In this document: positions 5,055 through 46,568 of the stretch, one piece after another | Layout: every line of letters begins with the position of its first letter | Numbering within the stretch: position 1 is the first letter of the stretch | Assembly (NCBI GenBank): GCA_964016885.1 | Contig: OZ024765.1 | Span: forward strand, 2,232,001-2,296,000 | Reading direction: 5' to 3' | From: Eledone cirrhosa | Taxonomy: Eukaryota | Length of the DNA: 64,000 bases | Made by a program: the position numbers and the translations under genes | Notes under the pieces: model-generated | Database searches by the model: none | What the model was told of the DNA's origin: nothing | Seen by the model: only the letters and a program-made list of their open reading frames with translations

Positions 5055-5125
5055 TATTTTATCTGATGAGAACACAAATATCATCCTATGATGATATTTG
5101 TTTTTGAAATGCGCATAATAAAATA
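5055..5125 (+). ncRNA. Type-I hammerhead ribozyme motif (TATTTTAT family, long stem II)
   Basis: tattttat CTGATGA gaacacaaatatcatc ctat gatgatatttgttttt GAAA tgcgca TA ataaaata. 8-bp stem I and palindromic stem III. Confidence 0.8.
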
Positions 5126-5230
5126 CATGGAACTCTTTTAATATATGGAACTCTTTTGATCTTATATTATATATATATATATATATTAATTCAAAATATT
5201 AATAAATATAGACATTCAACGTAATCAAAA

Positions 5231-5300
5231 TATATTTTATTATATATATTTCGGAGGTACTGTGCTGTTTTTTCAGTACGTCCTCATCAGATAAAATATA
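5231..5300 (-). ncRNA. Type-I hammerhead ribozyme motif (TATTTTAT family)
   Basis: Minus strand: tatattttat CTGATGA ggacgtactg aaaaaacagca cagtacctcc GAAA tatata TA ataaaatata. 10-bp stem I. Confidence 0.8.
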
Positions 5301-5494
5301 TAAATTGATGTATGACATTCCTCGACTGTGCTGATGGTTAAATTCAGGTCTTGGCAGTGATTAATCAATGAACCTTGTTTAAGTTTTGGTTATATATATA
5401 TATATATTTATATATATATATATATATACATATATATATATATATATATATATATATACATATATATATATATATATATATATATAATATATAT

Positions 5495-5573
5495 ACAGGG
5501 TATAACAAAATGTGGCTACAAACCTTCATTAGAATGTTGTTCAAGCCTGTATACATTTTTGGGGACACCCTAT
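5495..5573. mobile_element. Tiny Tc1/mariner-type MITE remnant
   Basis: TACAGGGT...AAAATG / CATTTTTGGGGACACCCTATA imperfect TIRs in a TA context. A related piece lies at 44425-44490. Confidence 0.5.
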
Positions 5574-5984
5574 ATACATATAATACATATATGCATTTAT
5601 ATATACATATGTATATATATATATATATATATATATATATACATATATATATATATACACATATATATATATATATATATATATATATATATATATATAT
5701 TATGTTGAAAAATCGTATTCATGAAATAAGATGAACAGGTGTATGTAACAGGTATATATATATATATATATATATATATATATATATATATATATATATA
5801 TATATATATATACATATGTGAATATATGAATGTATTACACACACACTCATATATAATATATATAATATCTATATATATATATATATATATATATATATAT
5901 ATATATATATATATATAAGCCGGTAGCGAGCTTATACTATTAAGTTTGCGCTAAGGTATGTCAATATCTTAACACAAAATATTA

Positions 5985-6044
5985 TATTTTATCTGATGAA
6001 AGCACACTAAAATTTTGTGTCCTTGAAATACGTATAACAAAATA
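5985..6044 (+). ncRNA. Type-I hammerhead ribozyme motif (TATTTTAT family)
   Basis: tattttat CTGATGA aagcacac taaaatttt gtgtcctt GAAA tacgta TA acaaaata. Palindromic TACGTA stem III. Confidence 0.7.
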
Positions 6045-41499: not shown

Positions 41500-42134
41500 A
41501 TAGATAGATACATATATATTTACATATATATGAACACATACATACACATATATATGGATATGTATATATATATATGTGTGTGTTTATGTGTATATATATA
41601 TATATATATATATATATATGTGTGTGTGTGTGTGTGTGTATGAGGGGTGTGTGTTGTATGATCGTTGTACATCGACCATTCTGGGGCAACACATTAAAGA
41701 GATAAAGTCAGTCGACCAAATCGACCCACTATTTCTCCTACACGTTTATTACTTACTTTATCGAACCCTTCTTGTCGAAGCGCTATAGCAACTCAGAAAC
41801 TAATACAGACACAGACAAACGCACACATACACACACACATTCTCACCCTCTCATTGAAATCCTCTTTCTCTCATCCTTTCTCTCTCTCTCTCGCCTTTCA
41901 CTCTCATTCCCCTCTCTTTCCAACCCTCTTAACTCTCCCCCACTCTCTAACCTCTTTATGTACCCCACCCCGTCTCTCTCTCACACCCCTTGTCTCTCTC
42001 ACTATTTCTTTCAATGTATCTATCACCACCCTCTCCACTCTGTCACACACTCTCTCTCTCACTCTCTCTCCATTCTCGCTCTCTCCCTCTCTCTTTCCAC
42101 ACACACACACACACACACACACACTCTCTCTCTC

Positions 42135-42490
42135 TCTCTATCAACACACCCACTCTTTCTCTTTCCATTCATTCTCTCTCTTTCTCTTTCCATTCACTCT
42201 CTCTCTATCTCTGCCCCCTCTCTCTATCAACACACTCACTCTTTCTCTTTCCATTCACTCTCTCTCTCTATCTCTGCCCCCTCTCTCTATCAACACACTC
42301 ACTCTTTCTCTTTCCATTCACTCTCTCTCTCTATCTCTGCCCCCTCTCTCTATCAACACACTCACTCTTTCTCTTTCCATTCACTCTCTCTCTATCTCTG
42401 CCCCCCTCTCTCTCTCAACACACTCACTCTTTCTCTTTCCATTCACTCTCTCTCTATCTCTGCCACTCCCCCCTCTCTCTATCTCTCTCT
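42135..42490. repeat. ~62-bp CT-rich minisatellite
   Basis: TATCAACACACTCACTCTTTCTCTTTCCATTCACTCTCTCTCTCTATCTCTGCCCC, about 5 copies. Confidence 0.85.
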
Positions 42491-44742
42491 TCTTAGTACC
42501 ATTTGATTAATTTGTCTAACTAATCTTTGACCGGAGCCATGTTACAATCTTCAACCACCACCACCAACAACAACAACAACAACACCAGCTTCACTGTCAC
42601 CAACACTACAAACACTAACACCATCGCTGCCACCACCACCACCACCACCACCACACACACTACCTACAACAACATCACCAACAACAACACCATCACCACC
42701 TCCTCCACCACATTACTATCCACATCACCACCACCACCAATTACCACCATCACATATACTATCTATATCAACAACATCATCATCACCAACAACAACAACA
42801 CCACCATTATCACCATCACCACCACAACATACTATCTAGATCAACGCCGCCACCAATCAACAACGAAACCATCACCACCACAACCATCACCATCATCACC
42901 ACAACCAACATCACCATCACCACCACCATCAATCACTACCACCACCACCACCATAAAACCCTACCACTACTACCACCACCACCACCACCACCACAATACC
43001 ACCACCAACACCACCACTACAACCAACATCACCATCACCACCACCACCACCATCAATCACTACCACTACCACCACCACCACCATAAAACCCTACCACCAC
43101 CACCACCACCACAATACCACCACCAACACCACAACCAACATCACCATCACCACCACCACCACCACCACCACCACCATAAAACCCTACCACCACCACCACC
43201 ACCACCAACACCACCACCACCACCACCACCACCATAAAACCCTACCACCACCACCACCACCACCACCACCACCACCACCACCACCACCACCACCACCACC
43301 ATAAAACCCTACCACCACCACCACCACCACCAACACCACCACCACCACCACCACCACCACCACCACCACCACCATAAAACCCTACCACTACCACCACCAC
43401 CACCACCACCACCATAAAACCCTACCACCACCACCACCACCACCACCACCACAATACCACCACCAACACCACCACCACAACCACATATACTATCTACATC
43501 AACATCATCACCACCAATCACCCCCCCTCCACCAATAACTACTGCCCTCCCCCTCCACCACCCTCCACCAATCACCGATACAATGACCTCTTGTCTGCCA
43601 CTCAGATCGATACTTTAGTTAGTCTGTAATCATACTTGTACTCTATTGCTCAATACATACTTATATACACTTGTATATACACACTTATATATACTTATAT
43701 ATATATACATACTCCAGGCATACTTATATATATTATTATACATACTCAATACATACTTGTATATCCTTATACATACATCCATACTCCAGGCATATATATA
43801 TATATATACACACATATATATATACACACACACATATATATATATATATATATATACACATATACATACACACACCAACACACACATATATATATACACA
43901 CACACACAGACACACATATATACACACACACACAGACACACATATATACACATATACATACACACATATATATATATATACACATATACATACACACACC
44001 AACACACACATATATATATTCACACATATACATACACACACACAGACACACATATATACACATATACATACACACACACACACATATATATATATACACA
44101 TATACATACACACACACACACACATATATATATATACACATATACATACACACACACATATATATGTATACACATTCATACATACTCAATACATACACAC
44201 ACAGAGACATATATATGTGTATATATATATATATATATATATATATATATATATATATATATATATATATATATATATATATATATATATATATATATAT
44301 ATATATGTATGTATATATGTATGCATGTATGTATATATACACTCAATATATACTTATATATAGGTATGGATAGATATATACACACACATTGATATATATA
44401 TATACATAAATACATATATACATGTACATAGTGTCGCAAAAGAACAGCATTCTAATAAATAAGTGTACACATTTTTGGGACACCCTGTTTATATATATAT
44501 ATATATATATATATATGTATATATATATATATATATATATATATATATATATATTTGTATATATATATATATATATATATATATATATATATATATATAT
44601 ATATATATATATATATGTAGGAGGTGAGTTTTATTGTAGTACAATAAAGCAATGCAGATATCGGATAAGAAGCACTCTACAGTTTGTAGGACTGGAGTAT
44701 AAATAATATATAAGATCAAAAGATGGTTAAAAGAGTTCCATG

Positions 44743-44813
44743 TATTTTATTATGCGCATTTCAAAAACAAATATCATCATGCGATGACATTTGCGTTTTC
44801 GTCAGATAAAATA
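44743..44813 (-). ncRNA. Type-I hammerhead ribozyme motif (matches 34896)
   Basis: Reverse complement of the 34896-34966 motif. Confidence 0.75.
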
Positions 44814-46502
44814 GGGAGACATGATATGAAGGTTAAAAAACACTTGTGGATAGTGCAGTTTTACATCAACATATATATATATATATATATATATATATAT
44901 ATATATATATATGTATATATATAAGAAACGAAATGAGGTGTGTAGTTACTGTAAACAAAGTTTAAGCTGTTAATATGGACGAAACAAGAGAAGAAAGCCT
45001 TCATCAGCTGTAAACCGCAGATCCGAGATGTTTCGGCGCCGCGGTTTACAGCTGATGAAGGCTATATATATATATATATATATATATATATATATATATA
45101 TATATATATATATAACGAAGGAAATGTGGTAAGGAACCAAGTGGACAATAACGCACCAAAGTACTCAATACTTAGGGTAGTAGAGTGGGTAATAGGAACC
45201 AGTAAGACCCCGACGGCTGAGAATTAGCCGTCGAAACGGCTTGAGCTCAGCCGTCGGGGTCTTACTGGTTCCTATATATATATATATATATATATATATA
45301 TATAGTAATAATAATAAATGTGACGACTAAAATCCGAAGAGGGCTCAATAAGGATAATATATATATATATATATAGATAGATAGTATACACATACTGTAT
45401 ATATATATATATATATATATATATATTATAAATAGTAGGCATATATATAGCATACTGGTTAGGCATGAATATAAATATATATATAACACTATAGGATACA
45501 CAATATTAATATACGCATTCTTCTTCTATAAGCATTATTACTACTACAACTACTACTACTATTACTACTACTACTACTACTACTACTACTACTACTACTA
45601 CTACAACTACTACTACTACTACTACTACTACACAGTCTACTACTACTACTACTACTACTACTAGTACTGTTGTTGTCCAGTGTGGTCAATACTACAGCTG
45701 TCTGCGGGTTTCTGACCATTTTAGTTTAGTGACAGGAATAGCTGACAGTCTGTGTAGCTGACAGCACCACCACCACCACCACCACCACTACCACCACCAC
45801 CACCACCACTACCAGCAGTACCACCACCACCACCACCACCACCAGCACCACCACTACCACCACCACCACCACCACCACCACCACCACCACCACCACTACC
45901 AGCACCACCACCACCACCACCACCACCACTACCAGCACCACCAGCACCACCACCACCACCACTACCACCACCACCACCACTACCACCACCACTACCACCA
46001 CCACCACCACCACTACCAGCACCACCACCACCACCACCACCACCACCACCACCACCACCAGCACCACCACCACCAACACCACCACCAACACCACCACCAC
46101 CACCACCAACACCACCACCACCACCACCACCAACACCACCACCACCACTACCACCACCACCACCACCACCACCACCACTACCACCACCACCACCACCACC
46201 AACACCACCACCACATCATTATATATAAATTTTCTCAAATATTTCAGACGCTCGCTACAATGTTTTACCAAACACATACAACTTGATATTGCTTTGTATA
46301 AGACTCACTTATTCTCTCTCTCTCTCTCTCTCTCTCTCTCTCTCTCTCTCTCTCTCTCTATATATATATATATATATATATATATATATATATATATATA
46401 TATATATATATATATATATATATATGACTATCCAGGAAGCTCCAACCGTTGAGGTTGTCTTTTTTTCCGGGTATGTCAATATTTATTTATAAAACAAATC
46501 TG

Positions 46503-46568
46503 TATTTTATCTGATGAAAGCGCACCATGATTTGCCTTGGTTGCCCTTGAAATGTGTATAATAAAATA
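46503..46568 (+). ncRNA. Type-I hammerhead ribozyme motif (TATTTTAT family)
   Basis: tattttat CTGATGA aagcgca...tgccctt GAAA tgtgta TA ataaaata. Confidence 0.7.

Follow-up and report, generated by a model that had tools for sequence, protein, structure and literature searches.

The main question raised by this locus is whether the short repeats dispersed through the window, i.e. the whole 64-kb stretch of DNA that was analysed, carry genuine hammerhead ribozyme motifs, and from which kind of mobile element they derive. Descriptor and motif scans of the window identified nine full type I hammerhead motifs and one 3' half, at a density of about one motif per 7 kb within this window. Every copy consists of an 8-bp stem I, CUGAYGA, stem II, GAAA, T(RYRY)A, UA and the 3' strand of stem I. 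Four subfamilies (A, B, C and D) occur in this single window and a fifth was seen in reads. In detail, the following pieces were found:

5055..5125, plus strand: hammerhead of subfamily A in an insertion (4998-5167) flanked by (TA)n tracts; cut predicted after 5117.
5233..5298, minus strand: hammerhead of subfamily C with G10.1-C11.1 kept, predicted cut after 5241; insertion 5187-5390.
5985..6044, plus strand: hammerhead of subfamily B in insertion 5918-6087, cut predicted after 6036; its stem I contains an A.C mismatch.
29274..29330, plus strand: hammerhead of subfamily B, predicted cut after 29322; insertion 29091-29372, with the longest 5' part (232 nt).
34780..34856, minus strand: tail of subfamily A in inverted orientation, covering +58 to +134 from the cut and abutting the 5' end of the 34896 copy.
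34896..34966, plus strand: hammerhead of subfamily A in a main piece (34857-35002) with a short 3' end; cut predicted after 34958.
35202..35264, minus strand: hammerhead of subfamily B in an insertion (about 35056-35350) with a long tail and another repeat upstream; cut predicted after 35210.
44743..44813, minus strand: hammerhead of subfamily A, predicted cut after 44751; insertion 44617-44870, long tail.
46503..46568, plus strand: hammerhead of subfamily B, predicted cut after 46560; insertion 46426-46704, long tail.
47041..47207, minus strand: subfamily B piece cut off inside stem II, with only GAAA, palindrome, cut site and long tail; the 3' half motif lies at 47178-47207.
50904..50951, plus strand: subfamily B tail only (last 48 nt), ending in (TA)n, with 91.7% identity to the 46503 tail.
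51500..51577, plus strand: hammerhead of subfamily D, the ninth copy, predicted cut after 51569; insertion 51429-51618.

Several observations indicate that these matches are not due to chance. The strict descriptor found 8 motifs in the real sequence and none in each of 60 local shuffles, and the 5' motif alone gave 9 matches against 0.09 expected. The strict set comprises seven of the eight copies listed in a preliminary description of this DNA plus the 51500 copy, the 5985 copy being excluded by the pairing rule. Stem I is the open-ended stem, and 143 of the 144 cells of stems I and II around the core are paired. The core letters CUGANGA and GAAA and the NUH at the cut are kept in all nine copies, with the triplet AUA and position 7 as the sole variable core position; in the contig of run X1, none of the 40 variants listed out of 75 falls within the core or GAAA. 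Judged by their letters and pairing, all eight copies of the preliminary description are thus genuine type I hammerhead motifs whose cleavage is predicted; each was located where it had been placed, with all motif parts. The 51500 copy had been overlooked and carries two wobble pairs in stem I and a 43-nt stem II. Of the single mismatches formerly claimed for two copies, the one at 5985 holds (the A.C mismatch), and that at 35202 turned out to be a U.G wobble and no true mismatch.

The two stems behave very differently. Stem II pairs in 54 of 54 cells, with double-sided changes in all six core pairs, and RNAalifold recovered the same helix unprompted, with double-sided changes in 9 of its 9 predicted pairs. 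Stem II had been called interchangeable but still paired. Its sequence does vary while pairing is kept, but its geometry is fixed (3 bp, C.Y, then at least 3 bp), so that it is not freely interchangeable. The C·C or C·U mismatch at stem II pair 4 is invariant (9/9); the three stem II pairings quoted earlier are indeed present, but two of the quotes omitted this mismatch and one hid it. Stem I, in turn, is all-AU over its 8 bp and compensatory changes were never seen, so it is conserved as sequence and covariation gives no demonstration of it. Between subfamilies, stem I and the core show 90-96% identity, as against 30-39% for the flanking 10-20 nt. The G10.1-C11.1 pair is kept in two copies and replaced by A-U or G.U in the other seven. 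The invariance of the A-U stem I and of the C.Y mismatch likely reflects docking of stem I on stem II or contact with a protein. Altogether, the double-sided changes in stem II and the high identity of stem I and core support the view that selection acted on the hammerhead fold in the source elements; the earlier proposal of selection on ribozyme function stands to that extent, with cleavage itself remaining a prediction. A hairpin at the start of the tail, common to A and B, was rejected as a further conserved structure, as it reflects sequence similarity only (0/5 pairs covary).

Stem III, which the preliminary description did not mention, is palindromic, and in fold predictions the A15.1-U16.1 pair has a probability of at most 0.004 in the monomer. 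As this stem is barely formed in the monomer, it points to dimer cleavage. The 8-nt palindromes pair fully with themselves in 8/9 copies when wobbles are included (6/9 with Watson-Crick pairs only), and an intermolecular 8-bp helix is possible in 8/9 copies. Both inner pairs of the palindrome show double-sided changes, and at its sole non-pairing letter (35213) the palindromic letter makes up 99.9% of the X1 contig depth. At 20 C, homodimers are clearly better than two monomer folds only for subfamilies A and C (4/9); two of the remaining five copies are about equal and three are worse. The hammerheads are predicted to cut only as dimers, in a tandem transcript of the parent element. Cross-family dimers as the cause of the invariant stem I found no support: among 45 pairings, just 12 do as well as or better than the two monomer folds, nine of them within a subfamily.

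Important insight into the origin of the motifs can be gained from their surroundings, a retroelement context that the preliminary description had likewise passed over. They sit in short insertions of 167-295 nt whose 3' ends run into (TA)n, and (TA)n follows all ten pieces that hold a cut site, as in the TA-targeting Penelope-like element (PLE) clades Hydra, Naiad and Neptune. The distance from the cut to (TA)n is 44-54 nt in six pieces and 134-154 nt in four, with none between; there are thus two classes of 3' end, and the tail measures about 85-100 nt. An inverted tail at the 5' junction was seen in one of the ten pieces (the 34896 copy). This inverted piece (34780-34856) is exactly the tail that its main copy lacks, and it shows 97.9% identity to 44597-44693 over 97 nt, the TA included. 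The insertions of the 5233 and 5055 copies lie tail-to-tail across a single TA tract. A head-to-tail (partial tandem, pLTR) arrangement was found in none of the ten pieces of this window, and none of the window pieces terminates at the cut or in a poly(A) tract. No reverse transcriptase or GIY-YIG remnant was found beside the copies, and the 143 of 149 candidate frames that were compared with Pfam gave 0 PLE matches, which counts against a PLE origin; the pieces are too short to reach an ORF. The maximum of 3.1 M in depth at 35185-35199 is not taken to mean that copies begin at the cut, since degenerate AT-rich DNA matches that segment.

This insertion anatomy matches the pseudo-LTR ends of PLEs, for which palindromic, dimer-dependent hammerheads have been published, and it thereby suggests a PLE origin. 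We consider it probable that the insertions with the nine motifs are 5'-truncated pseudo-LTR ends of several related Penelope-like retrotransposon families, cleaving only as dimers in the tandem parent transcript. In such a scheme, the element protein would nick (TA)n and begin reverse transcription either about 50 or about 145 nt downstream of the hammerhead, on a template RNA not cut at the hammerhead; cDNA synthesis would halt early, giving pieces of 170-300 nt. In the tandem parent transcript, two copies might pair via their 8-nt palindromes to form a double hammerhead cut after AUA, and the solo genomic copies would be mostly inert. In the published insertion scheme, PLEs leave an inverted 5'-truncated copy and a tail at one end only (Craig 2021, PMC8557442), as is seen at the 34896 copy. 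The PAc PLE, a Poseidon element of Anolis, was shown in vitro to use two internal RT start sites and uncleaved RNA and to extend both target strands (Frangieh 2024, PMC11167929); two internal starts giving a tail, an uncleaved template and an AT-rich target are also what is proposed here. However, the PAc tail measures 30-40 nt, against 85-100 nt here, which speaks against the PLE reading, and the PAc ORF starts inside its hammerhead, whereas here the ATG downstream of the motifs meets a stop within 3-4 codons.

The closest published motifs are the PLE hammerheads of Cervera and de la Pena 2014 (PMC4209133), whose helix III is small and palindromic and which can lie close to one another on opposite strands; the nearest rows are those of Drosophila willistoni and Aedes aegypti. 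Shared features are the type I topology, a helix III of 2 bp plus palindromic loop, U15.2-A16.2 and, as in the PLE consensus, the palindromic 15.2-16.2 plus loop III; the D. willistoni row also has the AUA triplet and an 8-nt palindrome. Many dispersed single copies, several families per genome and neighbours on opposite strands are likewise common to both sets. In contrast to that consensus, and as a further point against the PLE reading, the window copies lack an extra base between 9 and 10.1 (0/9) and mostly lack G10.1-C11.1, although the 2014 table itself holds exceptions. The fixed C.Y mismatch is a further difference, stem II is longer here (22-43 nt against up to about 23 in the 56 rows of Fig. 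S3, read by eye) and stem I has 8 all-AU bp instead of 2-6 bp.

In the case of the Hydra clade (PMC8557442, File S2), which includes Hydra-1_oBim of Octopus bimaculoides, the elements also target (TA)n, carry the hammerhead about 100-200 nt from the 3' end and, in several H. magnipapillata families, have a common stem I with varying stem II. In most of their motifs, however, a short stem II is flanked on either side by one additional unpaired base, and stem III has 3 bp and a loop of 1-3 nt, unlike here, and the stem I of the window copies occurs in none of the Hydra rows listed; a Hydra origin was rejected, as the hammerhead architecture differs. In the case of the Naiad PLEs ('HHR_half_core', PMC8557442), the (TA)n target and inverted 5' copies are also found, and their core halves are 35-50 nt apart and escape descriptors, as do the window copies. 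A Naiad origin, suggested by that label, nevertheless found no support: by eye and motif search, the 3' ends of Naiad_Obim and Naiad_Ovul do not contain the window motif, and motif searches of the Craig 2021 supplement, which cover the other Naiads, gave 0 matches. That the motif fits neither the Hydra rows nor the Octopus Naiad 3' ends also weighs against the PLE reading. The metazoan non-LTR retrozymes (Cervera and de la Pena 2020, PMC7229834) share type I hammerheads, low GC and the 170-400 nt scale, and depend on dimers in amphibians; they consist of tandem units with a canonical 4-bp stem II and a loop 1-loop 2 contact, neither of which was seen here (0 head-to-tail pairs in the window).

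Two other readings of the insertions have to be weighed. It is possible, though rather unlikely, that the source units are themselves short (about 170-290 nt), non-autonomous and retrozyme-like or SINE-like, and that they have defined ends and are mobilised in trans by a PLE enzyme, instead of being truncated tails of full-length elements. The 5' ends lie 119-150 nt before the cut in 7/9 full copies (120, 120, 119, 135, 141 and 150 among them), which is tighter than random truncation suggests, and A5055 and A44743 begin at the identical base after (TA)n; the lengths lie within the range of metazoan retrozyme RNAs, and a 2026 preprint derives animal retrozymes from pLTRs. Still, 5' ends do vary, as B29274 reaches as far as -232 and the piece at 47197 breaks off within stem II, and the ten pieces include no head-to-tail repeat. 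In run X1, the depth of the contig drops from 0.88 M in the core to 5,000 at about 145 nt upstream of the cut, which fits such units, but this fall also mirrors subfamily divergence (loose ends at 35283-35284), and no tail-to-head joint occurs among the joints listed, such contigs breaking at (TA)n. Alternatively, the fold could be kept as a binding or positioning site for the element protein, cleaving little or not at all, which we regard as highly improbable. The frequent A-U or G.U at 10.1-11.1, the weak all-AU stem I, the lack of a visible canonical loop contact and the derivation of inserted copies from uncut RNA fit such a role; PLE hammerheads are poor cleavers in vitro, and that of PAc needs protein and is dispensable for insertion (PMC11167929). 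Homodimers clearly favoured in only 4/9 copies are also a point against the PLE-tail explanation with dimer cleavage. However, catalytic letters and NUH are retained throughout, the X1 variants listed spare the core and GAAA, and the palindrome covaries as a dimer active site requires.

The preliminary description had further proposed that cleavage and polyadenylation may be coupled through the AATAAA that overlaps stem I; that this hexamer is under selection as a poly(A) signal whose use depends on ribozyme cleavage we consider very unlikely. One AATAAA starts on the base before the cut, and thus straddles it, in 6/9 copies, and another lies 5 nt after the cut in 4/9; at least one is present in 9/9, and copies without the first keep the second. 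Additionally, in A and B copies a CA step and a T-rich stretch follow about 20-25 nt downstream, and a terminal repeat is a natural site for a poly(A) signal. Rotifer Terminons carry poly(A) signals beside hammerheads. On the other hand, complementing the T-rich 5' strand and adding the AUA triplet yields the hexamer automatically; the hexamer would be hidden by pairing in stem I, and cleavage would destroy it where it straddles the cut. The first hexamer is broken in 3/9 copies and in the half copy, and A-to-G changes that break it while keeping a wobble pair reach 25% (35207) and up to 38% (35206) of X1 depth. With five B pieces, the either/or pattern does not reach significance, and the two signals, if real, would be antagonists, as in the Clec2 3' UTR. 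With no copy ending at the cut or in an A tail, the proposed coupling finds no support, and a separate, ordinary poly(A) signal may still be present here.

The class itself is known; what is new here is the long stem II, the all-AU 8-bp stem I, the usual absence of G10.1-C11.1 and the invisibility to Rfam, possibly together with a very high copy number. Rfam hammerhead models at gathering score gave 0 matches in the window, and at E up to 10 no hammerhead match was found over 34850-35300 or at 5985; in the whole-window E-value scan, microsatellite matches swamped the 150 listed of 725. The motif pattern gave 0 matches in viral contigs and 0 in prokaryote genomes; one metagenome match (L001) was rejected, as it lies inside a bacterial coding gene, lacks stem II and palindrome and reaches 28 bits against 63-82 for members. 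The searched literature on octopus or cephalopod and Penelope hammerheads contained no description of this variant, poly(A) signal included.

As Rfam misses the variant, and its core spacing lies beyond the 7-17 nt allowed by one published descriptor, PLE hammerhead counts and claims of clade absence may miss long-stem forms. PLEs make up 6.83% of the O. vulgaris genome, with 190 families, which favours the PLE reading if, as a SINE in the window may suggest, the host is an octopus. A far-reaching and quite unlikely extension would be a library-invisible hammerhead subclass in which the invariant C.Y mismatch of the long stem II docks on the invariant A-U stem I through a tertiary or protein contact of a new kind, present in 10^5 copies or more in octopus genomes, with same-family pairs in pre-mRNA forming double hammerheads that cut host transcripts and shape the strand bias of insertions in genes. 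Such a number, if true, would at least equal the highest count published so far, in a genome that is much smaller. Should the density seen here apply across the whole genome, latent dimer ribozymes would rank with the most abundant structured RNA motifs of this animal's introns. The subfamilies represent a natural mutagenesis series that sets a fixed core, stem I, C.Y and palindrome against free parts, which makes the role of PLE hammerheads testable with short RNAs. Lastly, a separate canonical hammerhead motif lies at 6168-6212, with 31.7 bits against RF00163.

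All eight motifs of the preliminary description are present in the window, which is AT-rich animal DNA with about 39% simple repeat, and all of them are type I hammerheads. A further full copy, the ninth, occupies 51500-51577 (+), and 47178-47207 (-) holds the 3' half of a motif. A strict descriptor found 8 motifs in the window and none in 60 local shuffles, and the 5' motif was matched 9 times against 0.09 expected. When the nine copies were used to build a covariance model, it scored all of them at 63-82 bits and the rest of the window at 33 bits or less. Based on their flanks, the copies (named by start position) were assigned to four subfamilies; an assembly gap of 200 N occupies 6821-7020.

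Subfamilies of the hammerhead copies
5055, 34896, 44743: subfamily A
5985, 29274, 35202, 46503 and the half copy at 47178-47207 (-): subfamily B
5233: subfamily C
51500: subfamily D

Conservation between subfamilies was computed over 27 pairs of copies. Identity is 96% and 92% for the two strands of stem I and 90% for the core, as compared to 58% and 47% for the first seven and the last seven bases of stem II, 39% for loop III and 30-39% for the flanking 10-20 nt on each side. The layout of stem II, which is 22-43 nt long, is fixed: three pairs, a C.C or C.U mismatch (9/9), then at least three pairs. For these six pairs, 54 of 54 cells are paired, and every pair has double-sided changes; the first pair is A-U in six copies, G.U in one and G-C in two. 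Structures slid along the alignment as a control gave 38-59% pairing. The covariation score was reached by 0 of 500 shuffles, a count not readable as a probability for nine related sequences in four subfamilies. Unprompted, RNAalifold recovers the same stem II helix with the same gap; it did not recover stem I from the nine copies, where variation consists of wobbles plus one mismatch. The feature is real, and selection has acted on its fold in the source elements. This supports the earlier proposal of such selection, stem II pairing having been kept through double-sided changes.

In the stem III region, purines and pyrimidines alternate over eight bases (A15.1 to U16.1), a stretch that is self-complementary in 8/9 copies (6/9 if wobbles are barred); three different perfect palindromes occur among the copies. 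In the monomer fold, the A15.1-U16.1 pair has a probability of at most 0.004. Nearest-neighbour energies, which hold no tertiary contacts, place double-hammerhead homodimers of A and C 5-12 kcal/mol lower than a pair of monomer folds at 20 C. Homodimers of two B copies come out equal to two monomers and those of three copies worse, and cross-family dimers are mostly unfavoured. According to Cervera and de la Pena 2014 (PMC4209133), PLE (Penelope-like element) hammerheads have a palindromic helix III, depend on dimers, are weakly active in vitro and occur as scattered single copies; one row of their 56, D. willistoni, shares the palindrome length and AUA triplet found here. By analogy, the motif would work like a dimer-dependent PLE hammerhead.

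The insertions carrying the motifs were considered next to published PLEs. All pieces with a cut site (predicted after AUA) end in (TA)n (10/10), 44-54 nt past the cut in 6/10 and 134-154 nt past it in 4/10. The 34896 copy has the short 3' end, and an inverted 77-nt piece joined to its 5' end is exactly the tail that it lacks. Craig 2021 (PMC8557442) describes such an inverted-tail arrangement for PLEs, and Naiad, Hydra and Neptune PLEs target (TA)n. Frangieh 2024 (PMC11167929) showed for one PLE that RT starts at two internal sites, that both target strands are extended, that protein assists hammerhead cleavage and that insertion proceeds from uncleaved RNA. Against a PLE origin, the tail here is longer than the one published for PLEs, and no PLE ORF was found in the window among the 143 of 149 candidate frames scanned. 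The only RT hits among these frames were LINE-type fragments at about 40635-41499 in both orientations (RVT_1 E 0.0012, DUF6451 E 4e-5), which have no relation to the hammerhead insertions.

Hammerhead membership rests on core, topology and covariation, and catalysis is predicted. Rfam models missed the nine-copy motif, though they detected a canonical neighbour at 6168-6212. The motif deviates in two features from the published PLE hammerhead consensus, and is without match in the Hydra hammerhead table and the Octopus Naiad 3' ends (Craig 2021, PMC8557442). Because the 5' ends of pieces cluster at 119-150 nt before the cut, masters that are short non-autonomous units remain a serious rival. 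The motif is best filed among the PLE-associated hammerheads, as a putative new variant. A SINE in the window makes an octopus the probable host. In O. vulgaris, PLEs are given as 6.83% of the genome in 190 families, and ribozymes are unmentioned in the main text of that paper.

A coupling of cleavage and polyadenylation had also been suggested. AATAAA starts on the base preceding the cut in 6/9 copies and lies 5 nt past it in 4/9, at least one being present in 9/9. Its sequence follows of necessity from the stem I 5' strand, which it complements, and it is often broken while pairing is kept. The coupling is not supported: cleavage would split AATAAA, pairing would hide it, and the ten pieces with a cut site in the window all run on past the cut, none of them with a poly(A) end. 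A conventional poly(A) signal at these copies is possible.

Four sequencing runs were aligned to 35050-35485, the region of the 35202 copy. Run X1 gave 12,229 contigs, with a summed depth of 0.76-0.88 M across the core and 5' stem I and 0.1-0.18 M for the greater part of the tail; by 35350-35364 it has dropped to 5,000, and another repeat follows. Run X5, from a second organism, has the same outline in 67 contigs; X6, from a third, shows the other repeat alone. At 35213, where the 35202 copy has a non-palindromic letter, the palindromic one holds 99.9% of depth. Among 40 of 75 variant rows listed, the stem I 3' strand shows A/G exchanges that preserve wobble pairing (25% at 35207, up to 38% at 35206), and core and GAAA show no change, in an alignment that favours reads matching there. 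A loose end in run X7 (5,405 reads) carries a fifth stem II with C.C at pair 4 and, as inferred from 30 letters stopping short of the core, the same pairing register; in X5 its 3' strand alone is visible. Compared with the depth of 4-14 for the longest pieces, the summed depth suggests some 10^5 B-like copies, a rough figure, depth not being copy number. With one motif per 7 kb, the density in the window, likewise rough, is of the same order, and the window may be unusually rich in motifs.

With about a dozen further hammerhead-like motifs or halves of other families, the window amounts to a field of PLE-type debris.

Other hammerhead-like motifs and repeats
6168-6212 (+): canonical type I hammerhead, 4-bp stem II, GUC triplet
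50411 (+), 49172 (-), 4128 (-): minimal PLE-type hammerheads, extra base after A9
Starts 28246, 28319, 28830: partial inverted pieces sharing the core of the preceding three
62958 (-)/62973 (+), 61835 (-)/61862 (+), 51027 (-), 29796 (-): Hydra-like motifs, extra base on each side of stem II
13536 (-), 13567 (+), 45233 (+), 48898 (-), 50594 (-): 3' halves of another family, long stable stem III, GUC
51204 (+), 46867 (-), 45034 (-): further 3' halves inside TA-flanked repeats
About 3290, 17558, 25688, 26009, 33005; 35365-35485: abundant SINE-like repeats

The hammerhead at 6168-6212, a single copy in the window, follows the 5985 copy after 130 nt in the same orientation and scores 31.7 bits (E 3e-6) with RF00163, below the gathering score of 34. 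Both Hydra-like pairs (62958/62973 and 61835/61862) are inverted between (TA)n tracts. The five GUC-triplet 3' halves are mostly in inverted arrangements, and no intact 5' core of their family was found in the window. Of the further 3' halves, those at 51204 and 46867 contain a CCGG palindrome. At 23192-23246 (+), a core is followed by a stem II readable as 3 bp, C.C and 6 bp (32.8 bits with the nine-copy model); stem I is unpaired and the first 15 bases are common to the 4128 motif, making a sixth variant or a chimera possible. Just beyond the short 3' end, the tails of A and B, unrelated elsewhere, share a short motif pair (44670-44700, 46620-46645, 35125-35150, 47105-47130); this may represent a hairpin close to an RT start, but no pair in it covaries. 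One of the SINE-like families presumably resembles a repeat of Octopus genomes.
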